DNA of 33,245 nt, taken from the NCBI RefSeq assembly GCF_025526975.1, contig NW_026515685.1, positions 558,001 to 591,245 on the forward strand, read 5' to 3'. Positions 1,319-33,245 of the stretch are shown here, piece after piece; positions within the stretch are counted from its first letter, which is position 1; each line of letters starts with the position of its first letter. The notes beneath the pieces are model-generated. The model ran no database searches, had not been told where the DNA came from, and worked only from the letters and a program-made list of their open reading frames with translations. This stretch comes from Fimicolochytrium jonesii (taxonomy: Eukaryota). The position numbers and the translations under genes are program-made.

Positions 1319-2538
1319 CTACTCCCTCGGATAAAGCACATCATAATGGCCCGGCCGATATAGCAACACCACCTCCTTCTTTCCCTCCTGCACGTCCAAC
1401 GGCTCCAACGGTTCTATCTCATGGTAATTGACAGTCCCTGACGAATCGGTAAGCGTCGGGTCAAGGTTGGCGATGCGGACGGTGACGCCTAGGGCGGTGG
1501 CGATGGCTACTATGTGGGGTTGGTCGGCTTCGATGTTCACTTTGGGGGGGAATGGGGGTGGTTAGCAGAGCGTGAAGGGGAGGAGAGAGCAGAGGGATGG
1601 GCACTCACTAGGCTCAACTTGAGAGGAGATGAAGAGGTCGAGGGAGGGGTAGCTGTCTAGGATGAAGGCTTCGAAGAGGTCTCGGTTCTAGCAACGGTGC
1701 GATGTGTGATGAGAAAATTTTCCCATCGCTTCTTCCCATGCCGCACCCCACACCGCACCATAACCCACCTTCTTCAAAACAGCAGCAGTGACCAATCTCA
1801 AATAACACACAATCGTATCACTCACATACTCCGTCCGCATCTTCTCCAACAACGTTTCCCCACCCTCCCCACCCTCCGTCTGTCCTCCCTCTTCCCCCAC
1901 CGGCCTTAACACCCCCTCAAAAACCTCCCAAAAATCCTCCAGCAACCCCACATCATACCCGACCTCGCCCAGCACGCCCCTTGTCCCCTCCGCCCGCTTC
2001 ACAACAGCCTTCGCCCAGGGTGTGTCGGAATGTTGATGTAAGAGCTCGCAGAGACGGAAGGAGAAAGCCCGGTAGAAGCAGTTACCGTCGCGTTTTGCGG
2101 TGCGGATGCCTGTGCTGGTTGAGGAGAGGTTGTGGGCTTTGGAGAGGAAGACTGGGGAGAGGGCGTATTCCTACATGAATAGACATACATTAGTATCTGA
2201 TGGGGAATGGACAAGGGAATTTCGGGACGTACGGCTAATAATCCATCAAACCCTGTCACATCGCCAATGAGAGGTGTATCCCCGACCTCGGCGGCTTTGA
2301 TTGCTTTTTCGTATTGAAGGATCTCTTCGTCTGTGGGGCGGTCGTAGGCTGGTGGTGGTGCGTTTGCTGAGGAGGAAAGATGCGTTGGTAGTTGAGGATG
2401 GGTTAGCGGATGCGGATGGGATGGATTCGTCGGTTGGTGGCATTTTGACGGTCCGGAGTGGGTGGGAGCGCTGTCTGCTGGATTTGATGTGGGTGAGAAT
2501 TGAGGTGGATGTTCTCTAGATGCAGAGGTCGATGTCAT
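1319..2538 (-). CDS. Otubain-family OTU deubiquitinase (peptidase C65), multi-exon
   Basis: Catalytic loop RDGNCFYRAF read on the minus strand at about 2063-2092; SDTIVCYLRLVTAA; EADQPHIVAIATALGV; C-terminal His box LLYRPGHYDVLY. Start codon and some exon borders are approximate. Confidence 0.9.
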
Positions 2539-3437
2539 GGGTTGCTGGGAGTGATCTTGGAAGTTGGTCTCGAGGGGCCTTGTTGACGCGTGAAGAAGCC
2601 TCGGCCATTCGAACCTACTCCCCTATTCCCTCCGCCCCTTATCTGCGCTCAACCCCTCTGATCCAAGAACCCCTTCCCCCCACCACAATCAAGGATCAAG
2701 GTTGTATTATATACAAACACAGCATCGAGAAAAGGCGAAAAGAAAATCGAAAGGGAACTGGGCGGAAAGAAACCGGGGTGAAGAAAACTGACAAATGTGA
2801 AACCTTCAAACGGGAACGAAACCGGGAGATTAGAAAAGGGTTGGGATGGTGGGTAGGCGGGGAAACCCTGCGATCGAGTGGCGAGAAACCGCAGGGATGT
2901 CTAAAGTAAGTAAAAAAGATGAGCGGATAACGGTTGCGAGGGGTTATAGGGGAACTTTCTTTCTCTTTCTCGACGGGGAGGGGGATGGTGGGAAGATGAC
3001 GTTTTCTTTGTAATGCCGCTTCGCTCGTTTCGTGGTGGGTTGAGTGTGGGTAGATTGGTCTGTGTGGGATTGGTGGTAGGGAAGGTAGGTCGCGATGCGG
3101 TGTAGAATCAAGTCTCAGATCACGGGGGTTTTCGACCCCATAATCCGTCGCTGGATAGGTTGGCGTACTTTTGTTGGTTTAAGATGTCTTTTTGTGTATG
3201 TTGTTTTTTTCGCCCACGCCTCCCAAGACCTCCAGCAATCGATCTCGATCCCCTCATTCCCCTCCTCCAAACTCTTCCATCCAAGCCCCACCCTCCAATC
3301 CAGCCCACGATATCGAGTGAGGTGGTGTCGAAAAAAAGCGCGCGGACGGTGATTGCGATTGTTGTCAAGCGAGAAAAGAGAAGTTCGAGTCGGCGGTAGT
3401 AGTAGTGGTGTAGTTATTGATTGGGTGTGAGAGTTCT

Positions 3438-4213
<776 letters not shown>

Positions 4214-5847
4214 GGTTTTTGTGTTTTTCCCGGTTTGTTGGTCACTCAAGGGGCGGTCGATAGCTTTTTTGGTCTGGAAATGCACGTGAACGGTAAAGTG
4301 AGCACTTCGTCAGAAAAGGCTTGAAATAGTTTGAAAGTGAAAGTCGGGTGTTTGGCGTGAGAGAATGCGATTCAAACGAATGCGGATGTCGGTCTAGCGA
4401 CCCGTCACAGCGGCCGCTCCACACACGCGCCAAGGCGTTTCCTTCCCTCATGATAGTCCCTGCACTCGGTGTTTCCACGCAACAACAGCAATCCCCGAAA
4501 ATATCACGGGAGGAGGGTTTGCATACCCAACCGTGCGCGATAGTCCGATTCGAAAACGCTAATCCCCGCCAAGTTTGGTGTTTGGCGTTTCCCACGGCCG
4601 ACAAGGAGACACTCACCGGATAATTGACAAGATGAGGGGGGCAAGTGACAGCGCTCTCTCTTTGGCGGGTGCTGATGGAATTAAAGCCCGTATATTCTCT
4701 ACACTCACAGACGGTGGCAGTAACGACCAAATTCTGCAAAAAAAAACAGGTCTCAGGTTAAAGACAGGGACGCGCGGGACCAGCGGCAGTTGTTAAAGTG
4801 GGCGTTTTCACCTATTGAGATATTGGTTCCAGACTGTAGGTGCTTCTGTGAAGGTGTTTTATCCGACCAGCGGCTAGACTCCGGGAGAAAAGGTGATTTG
4901 CGGGGTCTGAAGTGTCTGTGATTTGATAGCCGATGTCTGTCTCTGGTTCCTCTTCAGCGGGCGACGGACGGAGAGAGAGCTTCCTGAGAGGCGTTCTTTT
5001 TGGTCGCGTAACGCCGCAAATCGATTTAGAGCGGCCGCATATGCTGCAGCATTCATTAAGGAGGCTAATCACGGAAGTCGCCCATTCTCCCCCATTGATT
5101 TAGCGCCGTGATCAGAACGCCCATTTTGGACAGCTGCGTCATGGCGTCCTGTTGATAAGAATTGCGAGGCCATGGCGTAAGCAACTCAGCGTGTTCTCCT
5201 GTTGGAGTGGAAGACAGACCGGTTAGGGTTACAGCATCCCCCTGGTATGGCACGTAAATTTGTTCCTTGCCAGTGCTGTCTATCAGGGCTCCCAAAAACC
5301 GCATCACCGCAGTCCTTTCCTGAATCATCGTCTTGCTTCCTCTCAGCATCCGAGACATCAAGTCAGCCTGAAAAGACCTGCATCTTCTCTCGCAAAAAAC
5401 AACGCTATAGGTAAGAGTGTGCGACGCGCAAACGTCCTCAGTTTGGGCGACAGATCATATCCATCTCGCCTTGTCCTTCTTTCCCACGCTCCCGCCACTC
5501 ACATATCAACAACCCTGAAAACGCTAGCTCTAAACGGAGGGTCTCTACTTTTGGAACCACCTGTAGTACAGAAACACCATGAGCCGAGGATCGAGCTGTA
5601 AGTCGTGTCTTCGCTGCCAGCTGGGAATTCTAGTTACGTAGAGGTGGATAGTCCTAACCTGCGAATTTACGCTCGCTCTCAGCCGCCTACGATAGGCATA
5701 TCACTGTCTTCTCCCCTGAGGGATGACTATACCAAGTCGGTAGGTTGGACGATTAAGGTTTTGTGAGTCTCGTACATTTCTGTACAACACGGCCTGAGGT
5801 GAAGATCCATTTTACTAATAAATCAATATCAAAAGCACAAGTCTACT

Positions 5848-8800
5848 CTACACTCGCTTGGGCCCAGGAGCCGATTCAGCAGATCCAGAGGCAGGCGGTG
5901 CCTTCGATTTCGCCGCTAGTCTCCACTTGGCGCCATTGATCATGACTGTAACGACGAGACCAGCTGCCACCCAGGCGATGATGGAAACTGTGAGGAAGGA
6001 TTTCCAATAGCCAACTTCATCTACAAAAGGTTCAATGACAGCTGACCCGACGGCTGCTGCTGGATTGCGGAAGAGACTGTTCAGAGCCACGACTCCCGCG
6101 GCGGATCCGGGAAAGCTATCGATGAGATAGGTCGTGTTGCAGGAGAAGGTCCATGTAAGACCAAAGACACCTATGATCCGAGCAAGAGGACGAGAGCTCG
6201 TCAGTAAACGGCCATGGTTCTCGTCCCCGAGAAGCCATGATAGGGAAATGTACTTACTTATAAACATGGTCAAGAAAAGCACGGCAACATGCCAACGGAA
6301 CGAAGCTGCGAATCCAAACAGGAGTACGCCGAAAGGGAAAAGCACGAGGCCTACCCATTGGCAGCGCACCCGCGTCTCCGGAACAGGTTGACCTTCGGAT
6401 CTCTTGAGGGCGGCTTTTACCGTGCGATCCGCGTAACGGCCCGCGACATTGGATCCCAAAATGAAACCCAATCCGACAGGAATGTAGGAAAGACCCACTT
6501 GCGCCTCGTTATATCCGTACTCGTTCTGGAGGATGACAGGGATAGAGACATTGAAGCAGTAAAACGATCCTAATTCGAGAGAGGAATGCTTGCGATCAGA
6601 AACCCCGTGGTTGGATGAAAACGTCCGATGAGGATTGCGCCACCTACCGAATAAAATGGCAATGTAACTGAGACACAGTACAATGGAAGTGAACCTAAGG
6701 AACTTGAGAGGGGCCAAAGGGTTGTAACGAGCCCTGGACGGATCCCAAGGCTTCATGAGCGGGGCGGGAACAACGATCCACCCTCGTTCCGCGTACGCCT
6801 TCCCGTTCCCAGCCCTAGCTCGGAGCGTCTCTGGCAGAAAGAAAAATATAGCCACCCAGAGGGCGACGCCCAGACCCGCAAGGAACCAAAAGATGGCCTT
6901 CCATCCGGCATAGCGCGCCAAGAAACCCCCAATCAGCGGCCCGATCAACGGTCCGAGTTGAGGCCCCAAAAGAAAGATCCCCATGGCCTGACCACGCTCG
7001 GTGGGCTTGAAAAGATCCACGAGCGTACCCCCTCCAAGGGACTGCACTGATGCGGCACCGGTGGCTTGCAAGAGGCGGAACACGATCAGGTACGCGTACG
7101 AGTTTGTGAACGCAAGTGCGATACTTCCGGCCACGTAGACTGCGAATGAAATGAGATAGACGGCACGGCGACCTGTTCGATCGGCAAGTGATCCCCATCC
7201 CAGCGGCTGTGAAAAGACAAGTTGTACGAAGATGCTCAGATCGGATGCATGAATGAGGTTGATAAACATGGAGAAATGGGGCCGCACGTACCGCGACAGC
7301 GAACATCAACATGAAAATGGAAACGCTGATGTTGATCATCGAGGCGCTGGCATTTAAACTTTGCCCAATGGGTACCATCGCTGGCAACTTGAAACATGGC
7401 GTCAGTGAGTAAAGTGGCCAAGCGGTCAGGCACTTTCACCGCTAATGACCCCTTACATAGATGTTTCCTGCAAGTGGTCCAAGAGCCCCTGCCAACGCCA
7501 CGAGAGCCAACAGACAGTAGCGTCGAGTAGGGGAATATGCACAATAGGGCTCGACGGCTGTTGTTGTCGACGGCGTAGGAGGTCTAGGCCGAGGGGCGGG
7601 CGGTTTTTCATCCTTGAGGGGCACGATATCTGCCTTCACACTGCTAATATGCACGGTAGCTTCTGATATGGACTGCCCCATCGGCGCAAGGGTCTGGGGA
7701 ATGTTGGCTTCGGTTGCGACGTCTGCGGCGTCCCTGAAGATCTCGGTTGCTGTGGAAGGTTCAACCGTGGGTGTAGCGTCTTGTATCGACGACAAGCTGT
7801 CAATCAGCAAGTGGCTAGGTCTTCCATCATCGTAATGAACAACTTGCGGCTCCTCCCCATTGGCGTATCGGGTAGCTTCCGCCCTGGCCATAATGGCGCA
7901 ACGCCCTTGGCGGTCCATCACAACAACATTGTGCCAAGGGGTCGGGATGTGCAAGCTCGTGCTGCCTTCGAAGGCAGGGATGAACGCGTCTTTCGCCAAG
8001 AAGCTACGATGAATAAGCCTCACCCCGAATTTGGGGCCCTCACACGAATGCCCGTGAACGGAGATGCGGAGATGCAATGGGAACAACAGCTCTACCAAAG
8101 CGGAGTAAGCTTGATTGCGGATCATCATCTCGAACGCGATCTTGGTGCAGAGCTTCTTCTGGGCGCTCTTGGAAGGGAGGGCTTGCATTTCAGGCATGTG
8201 ACGCAAATCATCGAGCAAAAAGCGAGAGAAGGCGCGGTACAGCGCCGTCGTAACATGGTCGCTCGCAATGTCCTTGCGCAGGATCGAGCGAGAACTGCCG
8301 GCAAGGACGCATAGGAGTCGACGCGTCTCGTCCGCGATGGGGTTGGTGTCGGCTTGGAGGTGGTGTTCCACTGAGACGGCATACTGCGACGGAAGCTCTG
8401 ATTCGATTCTTGACGCGGACTCCATTACGGAGCGATCCGGGGCGTTGGAATCGGGGAAAGTCATGTCTCTGAGATCGAAGAAGCTGAATAATTCCGGGCG
8501 GCCTGTGGATTGCACGACTTGGGATCTCAGCGTTGCACCGTATTCGTTGACGTTGGCATCAGGTACACCGACTGAGCAAGACAGGATATCAGTCACAATG
8601 GTGATGGGACATTGCACTCAATAACCTTCGGCCACTTACTCAAGTCACTGAACACATGGCCGTCTGACACAATGACAAACTTGGCGCCAGGCGCGTATAC
8701 TTCTCGGATAAGATCTCCGATCGTTACCATCGAAGCGAGAGCAAGCTCTTCCCCTTTGTCAGGGAGATGCCCGAGAACTTTGTCGGCGGCGTTGGGGGAC

Positions 8801-9432
8801 TTGCAAGGGAACCCGGGAAGCATGAATGGAAGTGCCAGATTGCGTTCGATGAAGAAGGCGAGCTTCCTGCCAAAGTGCTCTCGACCCCTGGGATCCCACA
8901 TGTCGATGATGGGCTTGTACCGAAACTCCGAGTCAAAAATGTTCAGAACGGCGTCGACGGTGATTTTGGACTCGGCCGCCGCGGCTTGGAGGCACCATGG
9001 CACCACATGACTTTTGGTGAGCAGGATCCGCGCCAGATACTCCAGAACTGCCGGTTCGCTTTGATCGAGACGGAACAGCGCCGCGCCTTGCACCACGCGG
9101 GAATCAGAGCCATCTCCTGCAGCTCGTTCAAAGATGATCACGGTTTTGGTTTCCGGCGATGTCGGTGAAGCAAGGTCAACCTGATAGGTGTTGATCGCGC
9201 CGTTCTTGCCCAGCGTTTGTCGCCTTCCGATCGAAGCAGCCTCTGCAGAGTGCGGCTCAAGCAGCATCGAGAGGTTCTCTACTTTTCGGGATCCGGCGTC
9301 GTAGGAATAAGCTGCAAAGTGATTTAGGATGCCGAACTCGTCGCAGACATAGCAGAAGGCGACGGCATTGGTAGGGGCGCGATTCTCGGGGTCCGAAGGA
9401 AGCGCAAGAATGGCTTGGTACGGTTCGTTCAT
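5848..9432 (-). CDS. Fusion gene: Dit1/PvcA-family isocyanide synthase (N-terminal) plus DHA1-type MFS transporter (Dtr1-like, C-terminal)
   Basis: Synthase motifs LPGFPCKSPN, LGHLPDKGEELAL, SDGHVFSDL|IGV (intron 8572-8639), RISVH and HIPTPWHN. The same frame continues without a stop into LLALVALAGALGPLAGNIY, then intron 7388-7456 to LPAMVPIGQSL, intron 7207-7291 to PLGWGSLADRTGRR, then ERGQAMGIF...GPLIGPLIGGFL and WKAIFWFL. Two further introns are likely near 6570-6647 and 6170-6260. Stop at 5848. Confidence 0.88.
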
Positions 9433-10173
9433 GTCGCCTTCTTCGTTCTTCTCGTAGATCGCAGCGTACGAAGCTGGATGTATGTAGGAGAGAGATTGTC
9501 CAGCGCAATCAAGGGGAAGAATGATGTAGACAGGAGAGGATGAGGAGGAGGAGACAGCCGGATGTCAAAGAATCGCCTTCTTTTATCGGAGAGACCGGCA
9601 TATTGCTTTACTGTCGTCCGAATAAATTCTGAACGGTCAACAATGAACTTACAGGAGAGTAGCATGGGCAGGAAAGAAGAGAGACCTTGGTCGTCGATCC
9701 TCTTGCGGCTTTTGTGGACGTTAGCGTAATGCGACATCGTGAAAAACTTCAATCAAGAGCCTCTACGTTGGCTCAGACAGTTGAAATGTGGTGGAAGAGG
9801 AAGAAGGCAGGAAAAAGTGCGGGCGGCGATTATACAACTCGAGTGAACAAGCTACTCTCGGAGAGCGCACGGAGAAGCCAGTCGGGCCAGCATTCCCGTC
9901 CAGTCCCCAGCAGGATCTCTGCCACAGGCCTACAGATTTTGGGATGGGGATCGGGGCCACCGTCAAATTGCCTCTCGCTGTGCACAAGGCTGCCGCTGTG
10001 CAATGAGCCACAAGGACACTTTCATGGGGATTATGTACAACAAAAAAAGCGCCCGTCGTCACGGAGTTGGATGGCCAAACGGCCGCGGCATCGCTTGAGG
10101 CAGTTGTGAAAGCAATTGTTTCTGCGGCTCAATCAAGTCCTCGGCAGCAATCTTGCTTGATATGAGTGAGTCC

Positions 10174-10403
10174 ACGCGTGCATCCGAACGCGTGCAATAT
10201 GCCAACATGCGGGATTTCTGCCCAATCAGAAAGTTCTGTGTTTATGAGACGCCATGAGGATGATGAGGCCCCTCATGCCAACTTGCGTTGATTGACCCCA
10301 CATGCGGCATTTCTGCCCAATCAGAAAGTTCTGGACGAGGCGTGTGCGCATTTCGTGGAATGTGTTGTGGCCCCAAACCCAAAACTAAAACGCGTCGACG
10401 CGT
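10174..10403. promoter_or_regulatory. Motif cluster in the divergent intergenic region: four ACGCGT sites and a duplicated 34-bp CCAAT-containing element
   Basis: ACGCGT at 10174, 10188, 10390 and 10398. ACATGCGG(G/C)ATTTCTGCCCAATCAGAAAGTTCTG at 10205-10238 and 10300-10333. Regulatory function is inferred from position only. Confidence 0.45.
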
Positions 10404-10816
10404 GCGGTACACTTACATATGTACACTCCAATACATGAGGCTGCTCACACAGTCATTGCTGGTCGCTCTCCTCTTTTCTTTCCCTCCCCACCGACAGGTT
10501 GCAAAAACAAACGGAACTCTTTCTCCGTTGTACCCACCGCGGCGTGTCGACTGCTCATGCGATGTACAAATTGCAATACAAAAGGGAATTGCGAAATGTA
10601 ACCAAGCGCCAAGCATGGCCCCATGGCCCCGCCGCAGTGCCGCCTCCCAACCAGGCCGCAATTCAGCAATCTGGAAGCAGGATCTCCACCATCCCGTTGA
10701 TGCCCTCTTCGGAATTGCGCAAGTCGGCGACGCTTTAAAGGTCAGTCGACTCTCGACCGCTTCCGCAAAAACACCGCATCTCAAAGCGTTCAGTCAAGCC
10801 CACCCCAAGTGTCAAA

Positions 10817-12904
10817 ATGGAACACTCCGCCGGCGTCGAGGAAGGAGGTGAACAGCGATACCGGGTAGAGAAAGGAGATTCTGCAACCGTCGTAGAAGTT
10901 CATGAGGTGAAGGCTTCCGACACTCGCATCTTCCTCATTGTTGCCATGTAGGTTTGAGAAGGGTGCGGCACACATATTGCGGCTCCTTTATCGTCCATCA
11001 ACGGATTTCATGCCCTCCATCTTGTTAACCGCCCGCCATTTCCCTGCCATTACACAGCGTCACCCTATCCTATGTCATCGTCAACCTCGATGGTTCCTCA
11101 GCGGCCCTCTCAACGATCGGCAAGGCGTTGAACGCTTCGGCGCTCCAACTAGCCTGGGTCTACAATGCCTTCACTCTGCTCTCCACTCCGCTGATTCCCT
11201 TGTGGAGTAAGCTGGCGGACGCTTTCGGCCAGAGGAACATTGTTCTCTTCGGTTTGATTACCTTCCTTGCCGGATCCGCCGGCGCGGGCGCTGCGTCCAG
11301 CATGGCTGTACTCGGCATCTTCCGTGGTGTGCAAGGCCTCGGAAACTCGGCCATCGTTGCCATGTCCCTCGTCATTTTCACTGGTAAGATGCAGATCAAG
11401 ACGCTGTTTGTTTTCTTTTCTCAGAAACGTAGAAAGATTGACTTCATGGCTTTACGACACAGAGTATTACCCGATCCATAAGCGCGGCTTCGCATTCAAC
11501 ATTATCGGTGCCGCCATGGGTTTCACTATGGTAGGAAGGATTCGCATCAAAGCGCAGATGCTGTAACACTTTTCTCACATCTATTGGTTGATAGATCCTC
11601 GGCCCCATCGTGGGCGGATCTATTACCGACAATGCTTCCATGGGATGGCGCTGGAGCTATTGGATTCTTCTGCCACTCACCGGCCTGCTGTTCCCGCTTC
11701 CTGCCATTGTGTCCGGCAAGGCGGACGGAGCAAATTACAAACCCCTCAAGAACATGGACTACCTCGGCTTCATTACACTGGTTGGCACTACCGCATGCAT
11801 CTTGCTTGCCCTTGCATGGGGTGGTAAACAGTACAACTGGGCCTCCGGCCAAATCATTGGCCTCTTCGTCGCTGGAGGAGTCTTCGCTGCCTTGTTCATT
11901 CTCGTAAGTCTCGATAGTCGCAGGATTAGCGGGCGCAGCTGGTGTCTCATACCCGCTCCATCATAGGTTGAGATATTCGTCGCCAAAGAACCCGTTTTCC
12001 CGCCTTACATGTTCCGATCGCTCAACAACAACGCCGTCTTTGGTAAGAGCGGTGCTCCCACGTAGCTCTCGTACCAACAGAATGATTCCTAAAGCCTAAT
12101 ACGCTTCTTCCATTTGTTAGTCATGAACTTTTTCCAAGGTGGTGCGGCAATGGCTTTCATGATGTTTGGACCGATGTATTATAAAGGGGACCTTAAAGAT
12201 ACAGCTCTTCAATCCGCCGTGGACGTCACCCTGGCCATCAACCTCGCCTGGATGGTTTTCGGTATCATCTCCTCTCAGCTCCTCCGCTACGTGCCGGCGA
12301 ACATTCTGGTCATCATCGGGACGGGCTTGACGACGATCGGCACTGGCTTGTTTTCTCTCGCCATTTCTCAAGGGGTGCCTAGCAAGGGCGTTGCCGCCAT
12401 CTACCTCATCATCTTTGGTGCGGGCCAAGGTCTGTCAACCCAGAACTCGTTCCTCATTGCCCAGGCCCACTTGGAGAAAAAGCAAGACTCCAAGTTGATG
12501 TCCAACATTCCCGTCTATTTCCATCGTGTTGGGGGAAGTATCCTCGTTGCGATTTTGTCCGCTATTTACAGTCACGAGAATTCCGCCGCTGCCGCTGCCG
12601 CAATGCCGTCCGGTAGCGGAAACATGGTGAGTCCTCGCTGCATCAGTTACTTTCCTTCCTCCCATTGTAAACCATTGACCGTCTTTCCCACTTTATAAAG
12701 GCCAGCACGGGTATGGACATGGGCGGCGGTTCAACCTCCAACTCCACGATGCCGGCAAGCGGTTCCGCTATGCGCATGGGCAACTCGCGGCCCGGAACAA
12801 CAGCCGCCTTCCGGTGGGCCATTCTGTTCGCTGGGCTCTCCTTCTTGGCGTCCTTTGCTCTCAAGAAGACCTGGATTATCGCTGGCACACGCATGTCCCA
12901 CTAG
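10817..12904 (+). CDS. DHA2-type (14-TMS drug:H+ antiporter-like) MFS transporter, multi-exon
   Basis: Probable ATG at 10817 with a first intron joining in frame to VTLSYVIVNLD...; WVYNAFTLLSTPLIPLWSKLADAFGQR; FRGVQGLG; GGSITDNASMGWRWSYWI; DYLG...LALAWGGKQYNWASG; stop at 12902-12904. Confidence 0.85.
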
Positions 12905-13633
12905 CGCTTTTGCGAGAAAAGTTTCTTTGTCTCATACATACGGAGTAGTGCGATAAAATGCGGAGAAGCAATTATATAAACAGAGGTCATTCTCGTAAAC
13001 TCTTGCATCGTCTGTCATTTTGCATACAATGCGCATCATTCTGTGTCAAAATGGGCAAGGAACGGGTGAAGAGCCTCACATTGAGGGTTTTAACTATAAA
13101 AATAAACTTAAAGGCTTTCTGCATTTATTAGCGCGACATCTGCACGCACTGCATAGAATCGCAGTTCTTTTTCCCATCTAGATTTCAGCTTGCTTGGACC
13201 GCATGTTACCAAGCTACAACCGCAATTGGAAGGGCAGCCCGGAGCCCTCGGAGCCCACGACGGCCCGTACGACAGGAAAGCAATGGCAACAACTCCGCCA
13301 AATTTTGAAGCCCTCTATACTATACGGCCGCGGGAAGTGCAGTGCGGAGCGCAATAACTGCACGTCGGGATGTTGGTGCCCTTTCCAAACGAGCGGCTCT
13401 CAGCAACGGAAGAGGGTACTACACGATCCTCTGCACTGTCACTTATAAACTGAGCTGGCGACTACTACGTACCTAGAGGCGCCCGACAAAGTCCCTTAGC
13501 GGAAAAGTCCACCCATCACATGTAGCGGCTTGCTACCGGGGAGCTTGACATAGTATCTGGAACCTGCAGCAAAACAAGGAAGTAGAGAGACAATATCCTG
13601 GTCATATGAGACACAGATATCAGCAGCTCAACA

Positions 13634-25484: not shown

Positions 25485-26891
25485 TGTTATGAATGGGCGG
25501 AGCCGACGGAAATAGAGGCTACTTGTGGTGCAGGTTGTTGACAGGTAATGGTATTCAGACCGAAACAAGAACTAGAACAAGACTAGAAAGAACTGGTGTT
25601 GATCTGCTGGGGGATCAGGAAGTGGGGAGCTCAGGGGAGGCGGCTATTTATGTTTTTCTGGGAAGGCTGGGGAAGCGTGGGGAAGCAGAAGGGTACGGAA
25701 TGAGAGGGAAGCCAAGAGAAGCGCCAAGGGTGGGGAAGCATAGAAACAGAAGACTGGGGATGGGGTGGCTACGCTGAGGCTGTGGGCGGGTACGTGGGGA
25801 AGTATGGAGAAGGGTTTGTAAGCGCCGAGTGTTGGGAGGTGTGGCTACGTGCGGCTGCGTGGAGAAATGAAGGCAGTGGCAGGTGTGGGGTAGCGCGGCT
25901 GCGTGCGGCTGCGAGGTTTGGCAGATGTCTGGTTTTGACAGGGAATTGACATTGACTGACTGTTGGGATGCTGTCATGAGGTAAGCGCATGGTATGGACG
26001 CGTCGTCCATAACATCACCCCCTCCTTTAGCCACGGCGTCCGGATGTTGTTTTGATGTTGGCAGGCTTTGGTCGGGGTTTGTCGGGGTACTTTTGGTGGA
26101 ACTGGGCAACAAGCTCTTGACAGCGGGCAAGGTGTTCCACTGGCTCCCATGTGTTCTCCGAGCTTGGCCAACCCTGCCACTTGATGAGGTACTGAAGGTG
26201 CGTGCGTCGAATACGGGAGTCAAGAATGTCTTCCACAATCCATTCCTCCTGTCCTTCGACTTCTTCTGGTGGGGTGGGTTCTGGCTCAGTTTGCTCCGGA
26301 ATGGTGAAACGTGGTTCAAGAAGGGAGACATGGAAGACGTTGTGAATTTTGTAGGATGGGGGAAGCTTGAGGCGATATGTGACCGAGTTGATCTTCTCCG
26401 TGATTGTGAAGGGGCCAATCTTACGGTGATCAAGTTTCTGGGAAGGTCGGAGAGTCTTGAGATTCCGCTGTAAGAGCCAGACACTGTCCCCGGGTTTCAT
26501 GTCTGGGCCAGGTGCCCTCTTAGGATCGGCAAAGCGCTTCATGCGTCCTTGGGCCTCCTTGAGCTCAGTGGCAAGCTGTTCATGGATTTCCTTGAGATGG
26601 TTGGCACGAGCTTCGGCTGCAGGATTAAGGGATTCGGTTGTGGTGGCGGAAGCCAGACTGAATCGAGGATGGAACCCATAGTTGGCGTAGAAGGGGGTTG
26701 TCTGGGTGGCGGAGTGGATGGTGTTATTGTAAGAGAACTCAGCAGAAGACAAGAGTTCCTTCCAGTTATCTTGTTGATAGTTGCAAAAGCAGCGAAGGTA
26801 TTGCTCAAGAATCTGATTGGTCCGCTCGGTTTGTCCATCGCTCTGGGGATGGAACGCCGATGAGAGGTTGACCTTGGTTCCCAGGAGAGCG
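25485..26891 (-). mobile_element. 3' part of a Ty3/gypsy chromovirus, truncated by telomere repeats; 3' LTR 25485-26014
   Basis: LTR bounded by the perfect inverted repeat TGTTATG...CATAACA; PPT AAAGGAGGGGGTGA; inserted into the copia RNase H. Confidence 0.92.
26027..26891 (-). pseudogene. Integrase C-terminal part plus chromodomain (5'-truncated pol)
   Basis: SSAFHPQSDGQTERTNQILEQYLR; AEFSYNN...TPFYANYGFHP; GPF...HNVFHVSLL; chromodomain WIVEDILDSR...YLIKWQGWPSSENTWEP. Confidence 0.93.
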
Positions 26892-29588
26892 AGGGTTAGG
26901 GTTAGGGTTAGGGTTAGGGTTAGGGTTAGGGTTAGGGTTACAAGACCCCCTGGGTTGGGTTTTATTATTGGGTTGCCTTGAACCCTAGGGACTTAGAAAT
27001 TTTCGAGTTTTCTGGCTTTTGGGTGTGTTCTACAGTTCGAATTTTTGACTCTGAGGGATGTAGTGGCGGGGGGTGTTGCGCACCTAGGCAAGTCGGGGAG
27101 GACTAGGTGTGCAAGGGCAAGTGATGGGTCATATGGGCGGTGGTGCGGGTACGGGGGGCGGCAGGGGTGCCAATAGGGGGGGGGGGTTTGATATAAAGGG
27201 GACATATATGTTATATATACGTTATAGGACTTGTGCAAATTGGGATTCTTATAGTGCCGATCCGGAGTTGGCGTCCTAATTGAAAAGTTGGACCCATATC
27301 ATATTCTCTAATTGAAGTACTCTCGGATTGGGTTAGGGTTAGGGTTAGGGTTAGGGTTAGGGTTACAGGACTGTTCCCGGTTATGGGTTATTTTTGGCCA
27401 TCCAAAAAGTGTCAAACAAAGTTGCTAGCAATGTTCAGGGGCATCTTACTGTAATGTGCTTCAAATTTTGGGGCATGTTTTCCACTCAATGCCCCGGGAA
27501 AATCTGTTTTTCCGATTTTTTACTATGAAAATATTGCCAAAATGCATTTTCTGAAACTCTGAGTGGATGGATTCCGCTTAAAGTGGAATATGTCTCGGAA
27601 AACATCCCCAAAAACATCTAGGAACCTTCATCTACTCTAGTATTCATCAACTCCTGGGTTAGGGTTAGGGTTACAGGACTGTTCCCGGTTATGGGTTATT
27701 TTTGGCCATCCAAAAAGTGTCAAATAAAGTTGCTAGCAATGTTCAGGGGCATCTTACAGTAATGTGCCTCAAATTTTGGGGCATGTTTTCCACTCAATGC
27801 CCCAGGAAAATCTGTTTTTCCGATTTTTTACCATGAAAATATTGCCAAAATGCATTTTCTGAAACTCTGAGTGGATGGATTTCGCTTAAAGTGAGATATG
27901 TCTCAGAAAACATCCCAAAAACATCTAGGAACCTTCATCTACTCTAGTATTCATCAACTCCTGGTACTTTTTGTTTCCAGGCAATATGGGGGTGTTCTCC
28001 AGTTGGCAGCAAATGACCCATTTTGGTTTGCTCTCAATTTGCTCCATGTTCAAATCCTTTTAAGGCCCAAATACTTTCTTTTCTTCCATTGCTCCTCCTG
28101 TTGGTGGAGGATGGCAAATGCCTTTTTGCATTGCAATACATGGATATGACAGGGTGTTTGTCAACCAGCAAATCATGCAAAAAGCATGCAGTGCATGTCT
28201 ATTTGCATGCCCTATGTCATCCGTACCACCTTGGACACCCAAGGAAAGGTATGCGGACTCAAAAGAAAATATACTTACGGAAGTGGAACCAGGGAGATTC
28301 AATGACTATTTAACGAGCTATGGCACACGTAAGTTCCCAGGAGTGGGACTTAGCACAATTTGAGAAAACATATCAGAGGAACTGGAGAACACACTCTTAG
28401 GGTTAGGGTTACAAGACCCCCTGGGTTGGGTTTTATTTTTGGGTTGCCTGGAACCCTAGGGACTTAGAAATTTTCGAGTTTTTTGGCTTTTGGGTGTGTT
28501 CTACAGTTCAAATTCTTTTAGGGTTAGGGTTAGGGTTAGGGTTAGGGTTACAAGACCCCCTGGGTTGGGTTTTATTATTGGGTTGCCTGGAACCCTAGGG
28601 ACTTAGAAATTTTCGAGTTTTCTGGCTTTTGGGTGTGTTCTACAGTTCGAATTTTTGACTCTGAGGGATGTAGTGGCGGGGGGGTGTTGCGCACCTAGGC
28701 AAGTCGGGGAGGACTAGGTGTGCAAGGGCAAGTGATGGGTCATATGGGCGGTGGTGCGGGTACGGGGGGCGGCAGGGGTGCCAATAGGGGGGGGGGGGGG
28801 TTGATGTAAAGGGGACATATATGTTATATATACGTTATAGGACTTGTGCAAATTGGGATTCTTATAGTGCCGATCCGGAGTTGGCGTCCTAATTGAAAAG
28901 TTGGACCCATATCATATTCTCTAATTGAAGTACTCTCGGATTGGCAATCCGTGCGGAAACGGCTTCAGAAACTTAGAAAAACGAAATTTTCACGCGACGG
29001 GGGGTAAAAAGTTGGAAAATGTGGTGATATCTCAACATCTGGCTGACTATCCAGTGTAGGGCACTTAATGAAAGTTGATTGTAGCCTATGGTTTGCATAG
29101 CTGATGTGGTAGCAAATCTTGTGTAACCTTGCTTTTGGCTGAAGAACAGGGCCCCTTTTCAATTCTCAAGTAGTGACCCCCAAGACCTCCTAACAAAAGA
29201 CACGAGTACGTATGTGCAGGCAAAGGGGTTTGGCTGTGTTCTCCAGTAAACATTTTGTGATTCCGCTGTGCATCGTAGACTGTTTGTAGGACCGTTGCGG
29301 AATGTCATTTACCAAAACTGTTAAACATTTTCCGTTTAAAGCAGTGTTCTACAGTTTGTCCATGCAGGTTAGAGCACGTGACCTGGGCTTGCTTGCAGGG
29401 TACGCAGAGTGAGAGGGTTGGGGTTAGAGATTTCCCAGATCACTTATTAAATTCAGCCAAACTGTCTCTGTCATGGAACATTTAAAATGGTGGAAAGTAG
29501 TATTGCATTTATTGATTTAGAGTACATTGGAAAAGCGCACATTCAGAAAAGGGTTTTGGTGTAAAGTTATCAACGACATTCAACAGTA

Positions 29589-30962
29589 CTAAAGGACTTC
29601 CGCAAGCATGTCACGGACTTGGTTCTGTCCAAAAGTCGTACGGCACTCAGGGTACCTGGCGCAGCGGAGACGGAAACGATGCTGACCGCCAATGCTATGA
29701 AAAGCTGAGCCTCCACAGTTGGGACATTGAAGCTGATCACGATGCTGATGGAAGAGTTCACGGATATTGCCAATGGGAGCAGCATCAGGCACTTCCCCAT
29801 CCCCATGACCCCACCAAGCACGAGCAGGATCAATGACGGGTGCAATGCCTTTGAACCATCCGGGATTGAAACCAAAAGAGTTGAGAACATCTCGGAAGCG
29901 CTGACAGTCTGTCACAGTAGTCTGTCTATTGCGATCTCCTCTGAATAGAACTCTGGTGGCAGCGTCCATGATGCCATTGATGAGACTGTAGTACTCTTCC
30001 ACCGGCACAAGCTTCAAGGAGTTTGCGCCCATGTGCTGGAAAATGGTCTCGATCTGGTCCAAATGGAGATTCAAAACCATCTGTTCTGCTGATTCCAACC
30101 TGGCGCACTGAACTCGCACTTCAACTCGCATGCCAGTAATGTGGAGCGGGTGACTGTTGAGCCATTGACGTAAACCTCTCAGTGTCTCACTGCGATCCCC
30201 AATGCTGGACTTGGTTTGGGGCATTCGCGAAGACAAAGTCGAAGAAGAGGCTTTGAGCGCATGAACAAGCTTTGGGTAGCAAGTAACCCGAACATTGGCG
30301 TGACCCGCAATGTCAAAGCGGGTGGACCCAAATCCCTCACCAAGGATGGTGAGCATGGGAAAGGTGGCGCCAACTCCACGTCCATTGTAGCGAACCAAAG
30401 GAATGACCCCATGAGTGTTCAACGTCTGACCAATGTCCCATGTGTTCAGTGCAGCATCGGGATGGTTGCTCACTTCCTGATCAAAGGAATAAGCTGGCAA
30501 AGTCCGAATGCGTTGCTTCATTCCATACTGCACAATGCGTACAGAGGGTGACACAGCACCAATGATGTCCTGGAACCCAGACATCAACAGATTTTGCCGC
30601 CCAGCAATCAATCGTGAGTGATCCGTGCTTTCCCTCACGATGATCGAATGTTCATTGTGAAGTAACTCAAGAATCCTTGCCTTTGACTCTGGATTGAATG
30701 GAATGCTAATGACACAAGGTCTGCTAGCGATCCGCATCCAACCGGCGAAAGCTTCACTGTCCTTGATATGCTGCATCACTCCAGACAGTTCAACCAAGGT
30801 GAAGGCACCAAAGAGGGTGGTCAGCTTTGTGGTAGGGAGCGTAAAGGCCATCCAGTCCACATCAAAGTAGCCAGTACTGCGAAAGACCCCAAACTGCTCA
30901 TCCTGAGGGGCAGGAGAGTGATGGTGTTCCTCATCTGAAGAGCTTGAGCGAGAAGTTGGCAA
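29589..30962 (-). CDS. Unknown protein with a C-terminal C4 zinc ribbon, within the longest A unit; possibly 5'-truncated
   Basis: 457 codons without a stop or obvious intron; CPNC...RLRCARYPEC; AATAAA on the minus strand at about 29508-29513. The frame opens immediately at the telomere junction with a non-ATG codon. Confidence 0.75.
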   Translation of the reverse strand: MPTSRSSSSDEEHHHSPAPQDEQFGVFRSTGYFDVDWMAFTLPTTKLTTLFGAFTLVELSGVMQHIKDSEAFAGWMRIASRPCVISIPFNPESKARILELLHNEHSIIVRESTDHSRLIAGRQNLLMSGFQDIIGAVSPSVRIVQYGMKQRIRTLPAYSFDQEVSNHPDAALNTWDIGQTLNTHGVIPLVRYNGRGVGATFPMLTILGEGFGSTRFDIAGHANVRVTCYPKLVHALKASSSTLSSRMPQTKSSIGDRSETLRGLRQWLNSHPLHITGMRVEVRVQCARLESAEQMVLNLHLDQIETIFQHMGANSLKLVPVEEYYSLINGIMDAATRVLFRGDRNRQTTVTDCQRFRDVLNSFGFNPGWFKGIAPVIDPARAWWGHGDGEVPDAAPIGNIRELFHQHRDQLQCPNCGGSAFHSIGGQHRFRLRCARYPECRTTFGQNQVRDMLAEVL

Positions 30963-30965
30963 CTC

Positions 30966-31014
30966 TTAGGGGTTAGGGTTAGGGTTAGGGTTAGGGTTAG
31001 GGTTAGGGTTAGGG

Positions 31015-31055
<41 letters not shown>

Positions 31056-31116
31056 GGTTAGGGTTAGGGTTAGGGGTTAGGGTTAGGGTTAGGGTTAGGG
31101 TTAGGGTTTAGGGTTA
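30966..31116 (+). repeat. Internal telomeric (TTAGGG)n tract
   Basis: About 150 bp with occasional TTAGGGG and TTTAGGG variants. Shorter tracts lie at 26892-26940, 27330-27365, 27656-27673, 28397-28411, 28518-28550, 31894-31947 and 32519-32556. Confidence 0.98.
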
Positions 31117-31468
31117 CAGGACTGTTCCCGGTTATGGGTTATTTTTGGCCATCCAAAAAGTGTCAAATAAAGTTGCTAGCAATGTTCAGGGGCATCTTAC
31201 TGTAATGTGCTTCAAATCTTGGGGCATGTTTTCCACTCAATGCCCCGGGAAAATCTGTTTTTCCGATTTTTTACTATGAAAATATTGCCAAAATGCATTT
31301 TCTGAAACTCTGAGTGGATGGATTTCGCTTAAAGTGAGATATGTCTCAGAAAACATCCCCAAAAACATCTAGGAACCTTCATCTACTCTAGTATTCATCA
31401 ACTCCTGGCACTTTTTGTTTCCAGGCAATATGGGGGTGTTCTCCAGTTGGCGGCGAATGACTCATTTT

Positions 31469-31893
31469 TGCTATGATCTCGGGGACGGAGGCGGAAGCGA
31501 AGTAGAGAAGACAGGGCGAGAGTGATAGGCGACAAGAGATTTTATTGGCAAAACAAGAAACAAGGACTAGAACAGGAGATGAGAAGAACTGGTGTTGATC
31601 TGCTGGGGAGGAAGGGAACGGACAAAGAGAGGCCGGCTATTTATAGATAGGCAACCCAGCAGATCAGAGAACTACAACAACAAGAGGGGACTGGGGGGGC
31701 ATCAGCTATGCTCCTAGAGCGTGCGTGGCGAGCGTAGAGAGCATTGCTACAGCTGCTGGCTATGGGGAAGTAGTGGGGGGTGTGGAGAAGCCGAGGGGGG
31801 GATTGGCGAAATGAGAGGAGAGAGGAGGAGTGGCGATATTGCAAGAGGATTGGCAAAATGAGAGGAGAGAGGGGGAGTGGCATTGACATTGAC
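31469..31893 (-). repeat. Gypsy-type LTR inserted in a B unit and truncated by telomere repeats
   Basis: Starts TGCTATGATCTC, matches 23537-23889, and ends ATTGACATTGAC (also present in the 25485 LTR) before AGGGTAGGGTTAGGG. Confidence 0.8.
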
Positions 31894-32809
31894 AGGGTAG
31901 GGTTAGGGTTAGGGTTAGGGTTAGGGTTAGGGTTAGGGTTAGGGTTACAAGACCCCCTGGGTTGGGTTTTATTATTGGGTTGCCTGGAACCCTAGGGACT
32001 TAGAAATTTTCGAGTTTTCTGGCTTTTGGGTGTGTTCTACAGTTCGAATTTTTGACTCTGAGGGAGGTAGTGGCGGGGGGTATTGCGCACCTAGGCAAGT
32101 CGGGGAGGACTAGGTGTGCAAGGGCAAGTGATGGGTCATATGGGCGGTGGTGCGGGTACGGGGGGGGGGGGTTGATATAAAGGGGACATATATGTTATAT
32201 ATACGTTATAGGACTTGTGCAAATTGGGATTTTTCTAGTGCCGATCCGGAGTTGGCGTCCTAATTGAAAAGTTGGCCCCATATCATATTCTCTAATTGAA
32301 GTACTCTCGGATTGGCAATCCGTGCGGAAACGGCTTCAGAAACTTAGAAAAACGAAATTTTCACGCGACGGGGGGTAAAAAGTTGGAAAATGTGGTGATA
32401 TCTCAACATCTGGCTGACTATCCAGTGTAGGGCACTTAATGAAAGTTGATTGTAGCCTATGGTTTGCATAGCTGATGTGGTAGCAAATCTTGTGTAACCT
32501 TGCTTTTGGCTGAAGAACAGGGTTAGGGTTAGGGGTTAGGGTTAGGGTTAGGGTTACAGGACTGTTCCCGGTTATGGGTTATTTTTGGCCATCCAAAAAG
32601 TGTCAAATAAAGTTGCTAGCAATGTTCAGGGGCATCTTACTGTAATGTGCTTCAAATCTTGGGGCATGTTTTCCACTCAATGCCCCGGGAAAATCTGTTT
32701 TTCCGATTTTTTACTATGAAAATATTGCCAAAATGCATTTTCTGAAACTCTGAGTGGATGGATTTCGCTTAAAGTGAGATATGTCTCAGAAAACATCCCC
32801 AAAAACATC

Positions 32810-32985
32810 TTAGGGTTAGGGTTAGGTTAGGGTTAGGGTTAGGGTTAGGGTTAGGGTTAGGGTTAGGGTTAGGGTTAGGGTTAGGGTTAGGGTTAGGGTA
32901 AGGGTTAGGGTTAGGGTTAGGGTTAGGGTTAGGGTTAGGGTTAGGGTTAGGGTTAGGGTTAGGGTTAGGGTTAGGGTTAGGGTTA
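32810..32985 (+). repeat. Internal telomeric (TTAGGG)n tract
   Basis: About 175 bp of TTAGGG with rare variants. Confidence 0.98.
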
Positions 32986-33037
32986 CAAGACCCCCTGGGT
33001 TGGGTTTTATTTTTGGGTTGCCTGGAACCCTAGGGAC

Positions 33038-33245
33038 TTAGGGTAGGGTTAGGGTTAGGGTTAGGGTTAGGGTTAGGGTTAGGGTTAGGGTTAGGGTTTG
33101 GGGTTAGGGTTAGGGTTAGGGTTAGGGTTAGGGTTAGGGTTAGGGTTAGGGCTAGGGTTAGGGTTAGGGTTAGGGTTAGGGTTAGGGTTAGGGTTAGGGT
33201 TAGGGTTAGGGTTAGGGTTAGGGTTAGGGTTAGGGTTAGGGTTAG
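33038..33245 (+). repeat. Terminal telomere (TTAGGG)n
   Basis: G-rich strand running to the end of the sequence, the orientation expected at a right chromosome end. Confidence 0.95.

Follow-up and report, generated by a model that had tools for sequence, protein, structure and literature searches.

The DNA analyzed here (the window) is a 33,245-nucleotide stretch of Fimicolochytrium jonesii contig NW_026515685.1 that ends in a telomeric array of two elements, A and B, and the gene under study is a 457-codon open frame carried by the longest copy of A. The chromosome tip extends from position 26896 to the end of the window and consists of nine segments between TTAGGG tracts, five copies of A and four of B, arranged head-to-tail (Table 1). 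On the G-rich strand, all nine segments start at the junction GGGTT|ACA, where A and B share the sequence ACA[A/G]GAC, and the distal cut point is different in every segment. Six shorter copies were compared with their longest counterpart: at the cut, five share 1–4 bases with the telomere repeat, and one is ambiguous. The A copies are 95–98% identical to the longest A, and element B is likely a non-autonomous partner. Both elements contain a 12-mer, GTGTTCTMCAGT, which from its sequence is a candidate binding site: three copies are found in the long A (two of them at 29236 and 29344) and two in the long B (at 27992 and, inverted, at 28381–28392, adjoining B's distal end). Its 10 matches compare with 0.27 expected, an optimistic figure because the motif was first found by eye, and the A and B copies inflate the count. 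At the fixed ends, hairpin potential is unremarkable (z +0.5 to −1.6). Rfam searches of the array and of 20 of the 33 related loci described below match neither a ribozyme nor any other family, which gives no support to a hammerhead-bearing Penelope-like end. The longest A and the longest B both carry ACTC at the distal end; as a candidate true terminus it was dropped, since related units have no such end.

The first telomere tract caps the cut end of a Ty3-type integrase with SH3 and chromodomain regions (26027–26895), which marks an old break from which the array grew. An interior look-alike of the A junction, GGTTAGGGTT|ACAGCATCCCCCTGG, lies at 5226–5250, ~21.7 kb from the array, and is possibly a relic; a one-mismatch copy of the shared 12-mer is found beside it at 5191.

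In the open reading frame (ORF) list of the window, the frame runs uninterrupted on the minus strand over positions 29589–30962; read stop to stop, it reaches 30965 and comprises 458 open codons. The longest stop-free run among 1000 shuffles of the element is 250 codons. A preliminary description of this DNA had placed the frame, called intact, in the telomeric A element. The placement is correct and the 457 codons are open, but the gene is not intact: its upstream stop is a TAA from the first CCCTAA telomere repeat, and the first in-frame ATG, M39 (30851), lies downstream of the conserved residues D34 and D36, so that the start was lost at the telomere junction. Because no start codon precedes D34, the window copy is probably silent. 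Pfam gives only a weak match to Zn_ribbon_IS1595 (E = 0.005, below the cut-off) and no reverse transcriptase (RT), gag, or helicase domain in the window protein, in agreement with what had first been noted. The cysteines of the zinc ribbon are spaced CPNC-x17-C-x5-C, not CPNC-x15-C-x5-C as initially read, and are well kept in the family alignment (C413 in 85/88, C434 in 79/85, and C440 in 79/80 rows). A remnant of the extra C-terminal domain of the closest relatives was looked for after the gene's stop and not found. Two 151-nt contigs from one soil run cover the gene, and both listed differences are synonymous, which is too little to rely on.

The window protein (P0001), initially termed unknown, indeed belongs to an unnamed family but is not an orphan. 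Word-indexed homologue searches gave 1, 0, and 2 proteins, the single protein of the first being a Fimicolochytrium jonesii protein of 41% identity that is annotated twice under consecutive locus tags; such searches are insensitive here, and the search for longer proteins among them is weak evidence against fusions. A full HMMER scan seeded with the window and F. jonesii proteins matched 304 clusters at E ≤ 0.001 and 152 at 1e-10. Five of the 21 proteins looked up carry organism names, all fungal: F. jonesii, Blyttiomyces helicus, Nowakowskiella sp., Cryptococcus floricola, and Puccinia triticina. The family alignment comprises 119 of 151 proteins, those covering at least 280 residues. In a quick tree of 50 rows chosen by hand, P0001 and the F. 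jonesii protein group together with a Shimodaira–Hasegawa-like approximate likelihood ratio test (SH-aLRT) value of 94, a placement that by itself would make a chytrid host likely. An OTU domain is present in 22 of 52 long family members (21 above the cut-off), and Pfam finds no RT or helicase domain in the 52. The related genes are under purifying selection, with dN/dS values of 0.10, 0.13, 0.17, 0.17, and 0.29 and one further pair saturated. In searches of limited sensitivity, relatives were not confirmed in viral contigs (35 stretches), prokaryotic genomes (43 stretches), or plasmids (two weak matches). The C terminus of one member, P0135 (residues 821–874), weakly matches Myb_Rap1 (E 0.002, below the cut-off), a possible telomere-binding domain.

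A confident structure model of the window protein (predicted local distance difference test (pLDDT) score 91.6) is predicted to adopt the TBP-like curved β-sheet catalytic fold of Rep_trans (PF02486); single-sequence prediction was of low confidence (pLDDT 33). In a Foldseek search of the PDB, RepD or RepSTK1 chains take all six top places, with weak scores and with TBP close behind, within 1 Z unit of the Rep structures. Atlas feature matches to G2P/Rep_trans-like clusters (scores 0.79–0.86) are a lead only, PDB sequence searches and PHROGs yielded nothing useful, and a complex prediction with two copies and Mn, made without an alignment, gave no verdict (score 0.00). HUH proteins do not appear in the fold-match lists, an absence that does not exclude HUH. 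A conserved H-U-H pair was not found among the ranked alignment columns, and Y229 lies on a strand, compared with a helix for the Helitron tyrosine.

The most conserved polar columns of the family are Y229, H234, D34, K149, D36, D176, K237, E281, and R279. Near-invariance of this D, D, Y, H, K, R, E series among rows that are ~20–40% identical is the signature of an active site, and in order and local spacing D34/D36, D176, Y229, and R279-x-E281 match the active site of Rep_trans. In the model, D36, D176, and E281 each lie on a predicted strand, in the ligand order of the Rep_trans N′ motif, motif I, and motif IV, and are predicted to bind metal on a TBP-like sheet, with Y229 as nucleophile. 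D34 is found in 84/84 and D36 in 82/83 relatives covering those positions, and the local motif at D36 is VDWM in the window protein versus VDWL in RepSTK1. Y229, on predicted strand 221–230, and H234 are invariant (118/118), and K237 is kept in 116/118 rows. The spacing of the Y229 motif is that of RepD residues R189/Y191/K193/E196, as given in PMC4797284. At the position of R189, two residues before the tyrosine, 110 of 118 relatives carry Lys (K227), with Thr in the window copy and the F. jonesii protein. Position 231 is Arg in 71 of 118 rows (Y-x-R) and Lys in 11, the window copy reading Y-P-K. The preliminary description had listed the strings WDIG, VRVTCYPK, and GMRVEVRV, which are present at residues 175, 224, and 277, and had ventured a weak Rep_trans assignment from the pattern D...R-x-x-x-Y-x-K...R-x-E-x-R. 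Within that pattern, Y229, R279 (115/119), and E281 (117/119) are conserved, whereas R225 and R283 are not and residue 231 is usually Arg. With these residues, the fold comparison, and the telomere linkage of homologous loci, the assignment is supported.

One metagenome scan gave 77 candidate stretches, which reduce to 33 loci in 17 clusters by DNA identity. At least two telomere-like units are present on the coding strand in nine of these loci, the corresponding values for shuffles being a mean of 0.08 and a maximum of 1. The junction, GGGTT|A[CT]A on the G-rich strand, appears on the coding strand as T[AG]T|AACCC, with 19 occurrences in 15 loci versus 2.96 expected; the other strand has three, two of them in locus L008. 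Overall, 16 of the 33 loci, or nine of the 17 clusters, contain the junction; of the remainder, 12 stop no more than 800 bases from the gene match, and five continue for >1 kb and lack the motif. Next to the junction stands TAACCC, TAACCCC, or TAACCCCC, three telomere-type repeats, and TAAC(4,5) is the telomere motif given for Kwoniella in PMC11185503. Interior copies (L005, L028, L031, and L033) abut one repeat unit and then unique DNA. Five units are bounded by junctions at both ends or are self-closing: L004 (3841 bp), L008 (4377 bp), L003 (4541 bp), L021 (5492 bp), and L012 (5702 bp). Each contains an intact gene, and this gene is the only long frame common to all five, which makes the alternative first offered, an accessory nucleic-acid-binding protein, less likely. 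RT was not detected in the five units by a crude YxDD test or by Pfam on 64 of the 140 long frames of the loci, and the same 64 frames contain no helicase domain.

Further features are visible in subsets of the loci. One subgroup has an extra gene (L021:3581–4621, L007:943–1983, L012:4267–5724, L014:944–2392, and L018:408–1868), conserved and with H-x-D...H spacing, that has no meaningful Pfam match and no PDB match; we take the spacing to be reminiscent of TET/JBP-type 2-oxoglutarate-Fe(II) (2OG-Fe(II)) dioxygenases. Tandem repeats of 175–197 bp lie between the stop codon and the fixed end in L009, L011, L012, L014, L016, L017, L021, L023, and L028, with no Rfam family in the seven of these nine scanned. 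A short separate unit ending ...TATCAAT|AACCCC within telomeric arrays (L005:1–113 and L006:3847–3915) is possibly a further telomeric element. In L008, the reversed gene is followed downstream by a cysteine-rich frame (2403–3092) that resembles a fungal Zn2Cys6 cluster by eye and has no Pfam match.

A predicted nickase gene in stacked copies, with relatives ending at the same telomere-repeat junction, points to a likely new kind of transposon that would move into telomeres without reverse transcriptase. We consider it probable that these elements, of which the window copy is a start-truncated member, represent a new superfamily of DNA transposons that insert into fungal telomeres and encode a tyrosine nickase of the Rep_trans fold; the element is likely copied into telomeres by a rolling-circle, DNA-only route. 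Rep_trans enzymes, as described in PMC5714925, nick a single strand, form a tyrosine-5′ phosphate bond, and free a 3′-OH, a reaction that a 3′-OH can reverse. In the simplest model, the fixed junction would serve as the origin, and the telomere repeat, which shares GGGTTA with it, as the target. The enzyme would bind close to the fixed end, with the shared 12-mer as a possible site, nick the G-rich strand at GGGTT/AYA (or one base on, after GGGTTA), and so become bonded to the 5′ end of the element. Extension of the freed 3′-OH by host synthesis would displace the element strand toward the chromosome tip. The phosphotyrosine would be attacked by a telomeric G-strand 3′-OH that ends in GGGTT and is supplied either by a nick in GGGTT/AGGG or by the natural overhang, which would join the element to a new tract. 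An early stop of copying, or breakage of the array, would leave a ragged distal end to be capped with telomere repeats, and element B would be moved in trans. If the truncations arise from breakage alone, polarity is silent on the strand used, and the C-rich strand, which PMC13085455 proposes for Paramecium Helitrons, is a possible site of insertion.

Several points weigh against a Rep_trans transposase. Pfam finds no PF02486 match in P0001 or 52 relatives; the profile-profile comparison with Rep_trans suggested at the outset was negative (hhalign E 0.58 and 0.35, small template); and the R-x-D of Rep_trans motif I is absent, the family having N-x-[WFY]-D with position 174 variable. The missing sequence-profile link and the proximity of TBP in the fold comparison would suit a telomere- or DNA-binding factor, TBP-like and without catalysis, that the element carries as cargo, a reading that we regard as very improbable given the near-invariant putative catalytic set and the presence of this one shared frame in all five units. 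The array itself, with its fixed centromere-side end, variable distal truncation, and TTAGGG-separated head-to-tail copies, fits the MoTeR/FoTeR pattern equally well. The elements might be retrotransposed by a telomere-targeting RT of the MoTeR, Penelope-like, or long interspersed nuclear element (LINE) type, encoded upstream or elsewhere, with the Rep-like protein as targeting nickase or accessory.

Such retrotransposition would account for the gene pointing toward the fixed end in the window and in 15 of 16 junction-bearing loci, as well as for an AATAAA 27 nt before A's fixed end, and the upstream part of A is lost from the window copy. We nevertheless judge it unlikely: no RT is detected in the five units, three of which have overlapping assembled ends, or in the 52 long family proteins, 22 of which have OTU instead; the gene of L008 is reversed, both junctions facing the other way relative to it; and no poly(A) was found at the A junction. 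Somewhat less likely still, the protein might initiate rolling-circle amplification of the unit, either in place or as extrachromosomal circles, with re-entry into telomeres through TTAGGG by homologous recombination and no integration catalyzed by the protein itself. Yeast Y′ elements show comparable recombination-based behavior at telomeres, and the overlapping ends of L003, L012, and L021 are as expected of circles or tandem arrays. Known Rep_trans proteins are, in the account of PMC5714925, replication or transfer initiators rather than transposases. Against recombination, the A and B copies are interleaved and cut at different points, yet each has the identical exact junction, and the single repeat unit at interior copies is too little for homologous recombination, unless those copies are relics.

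To our knowledge, the known eukaryotic rolling-circle transposons (Helitrons and Replitrons) use HUH enzymes. We lean, if only slightly, toward a third catalytic scaffold for eukaryotic rolling-circle transposition, that of a superfamily spread across fungi from chytrids to basidiomycetes, whose Rep_trans-fold tyrosine transposase uses the host's telomere repeat as both origin and target, ligates the element directly to a telomeric G-strand 3′-OH, and lengthens chromosome ends without reverse transcription. No description of such an element, and no paper combining Rep_trans, fungal, and telomere terms, was found in a literature search whose keyword coverage was imperfect and whose scope excluded Repbase, Dfam, subscription journals, and supplements, so that an earlier name is possible. 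A Rep_trans-fold transposase in fungi would constitute a new transposon superfamily and extend the fold to eukaryotes; it would offer a compact enzyme (~460–560 amino acid core) that nicks and joins telomeric DNA sequence-specifically and has a predicted cut site, a way for fungal telomeres to be extended and destabilized through DNA, and a likely function for 304 unannotated protein clusters.

Elsewhere in the window, frames matching GmrSD_C and GmrSD_N, bacterial-type restriction domains, occur in the fungal subtelomere (19013–22449), and two DIT1_PvcA frames adjoining MFS transporters (5848–14000) resemble a small biosynthetic cluster.

Table 1. Features of the telomeric array and of the predicted nickase gene (window coordinates).
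Feature	Position	Strand	Basis or remark
Element A, truncated copy, 393 bp	26940..27332		Array comparison
Element B, truncated copy, 294 bp	27365..27658		Array comparison
Element B, longest copy, 724 bp; longest frame 99 codons	27673..28396		Fixed end GGGTT|ACAGGAC
Element A, truncated copy, 106 bp	28411..28516		Array comparison
Element A, longest copy, 2416 bp; 1039 bp non-coding, then gene	28550..30965		Fixed centromere-side end GGGTT|ACAAGAC, cut distally
12-mer, candidate binding site	28635..28646	+	Putative function, from sequence
5′-truncated gene, predicted Rep_trans-fold (TBP-like) tyrosine nickase with C-terminal zinc ribbon	29589..30965	-	Frame, model, fold matches
Zinc ribbon C413-x2-C416-x17-C434-x5-C440	29643..29726	-	Sequence and conserved columns
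R279-x-E281, likely RepD R212-x-E214 (third metal ligand)	30120..30128	-	Conserved columns (counts in text)
K/T227-x-Y229-x-K/R231-x-x-H234-x-x-K237, Y229 predicted nucleophile	30252..30284	-	Conserved columns
D176 in N-x-[WFY]-D, likely second metal ligand (RepD D142)	30435..30437	-	111/112; model strand 174–182
D34-x-D36, D36 likely equivalent of RepD D46/RepSTK1 D9	30855..30863	-	Suggested by order and local motif
Interstitial TTAGGG tract capping the cut A copy; source of upstream stop	30966..31115	+	Tract
Element B (first 353 bp) and piece of a repeat, then telomere cap; 782 bp	31116..31897		Repeat also at 23537–23889, likely long terminal repeat (LTR)
Element A, truncated copy, 576 bp	31947..32522		Array comparison
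Element B, truncated copy, 254 bp	32556..32809		Array comparison
Terminal TTAGGG tract enclosing the last A stub	32810..33245	+	Tract
Element A, truncated copy (stub), 53 bp	32985..33037		Array comparison

The fungal family shares with Rep_trans/MOBT proteins (PF02486; RepD, RepC, and RepSTK1), as described in PMC4797284 and PMC5714925, the predicted TBP-like sheet, the D...D...Y...RxE order, a tyrosine at a strand end with a basic residue at +2 and, in most relatives, one at −2, and an N-terminal VDW motif as in RepSTK1. It differs in having no Pfam or profile match, NxW/FD in place of an Arg-containing motif I, a His five residues after the tyrosine, a further invariant Lys eight residues after it, a C-terminal zinc ribbon, and often an OTU domain, and in residing in fungal telomeric elements rather than in plasmids, phages, or ICEs (integrative and conjugative elements). 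A precedent for a divergent Rep_trans-fold family recognized by structure only, with weak scores, is Rep-Arvir/DUF7845 of archaeal viruses and plasmids, which matched an inovirus Rep at E 2.8e-3 and was confirmed by mutagenesis (PMC13107129). That 2026 paper treats the fold as bacterial and newly extended to archaea; unlike the fungal proteins, Rep-Arvir is archaeal, has a winged helix-turn-helix (wHTH) fusion and a KHYYM motif, and is described as a replication initiator rather than part of an insertion element.

Among mobile elements, MoTeR1/2 and FoTeR (10.1101/845669, PMC12857005, and PMC8381367) are likewise fungal, head-to-tail in TTAGGG, and distally truncated, with autonomous and non-autonomous partners and interior relics bearing a vestigial repeat. 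They are reported to encode an RT and a restriction-like endonuclease, whereas no ORF of this type was found in the five units (A's lost upstream part being outside view), one of which has its gene reversed. IS91, in the description of PMC5714925, also has one fixed end (ori), a leaky second end, and single-strand transfer via phosphotyrosine, but is bacterial, uses a HUH Y2 transposase, and has no telomere target. The nearest behavior is that of the telomere-inserted HUH Helitrons of Paramecium aurelia. As presented in PMC13085455, these ciliate elements have a HUH endonuclease and Pif1 helicase and ORFs of 9–10 kb, compared with a fungal gene of 1.4–2.3 kb with an unrelated predicted fold and no helicase. 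They too are of rolling-circle type, with internal satellites, ORF-less derivatives, purifying selection, family-dependent ORF orientation, and absolute polarity in telomeric repeats, and the same polar insertion is observed in all nine window segments and in 16 of the 33 related loci.
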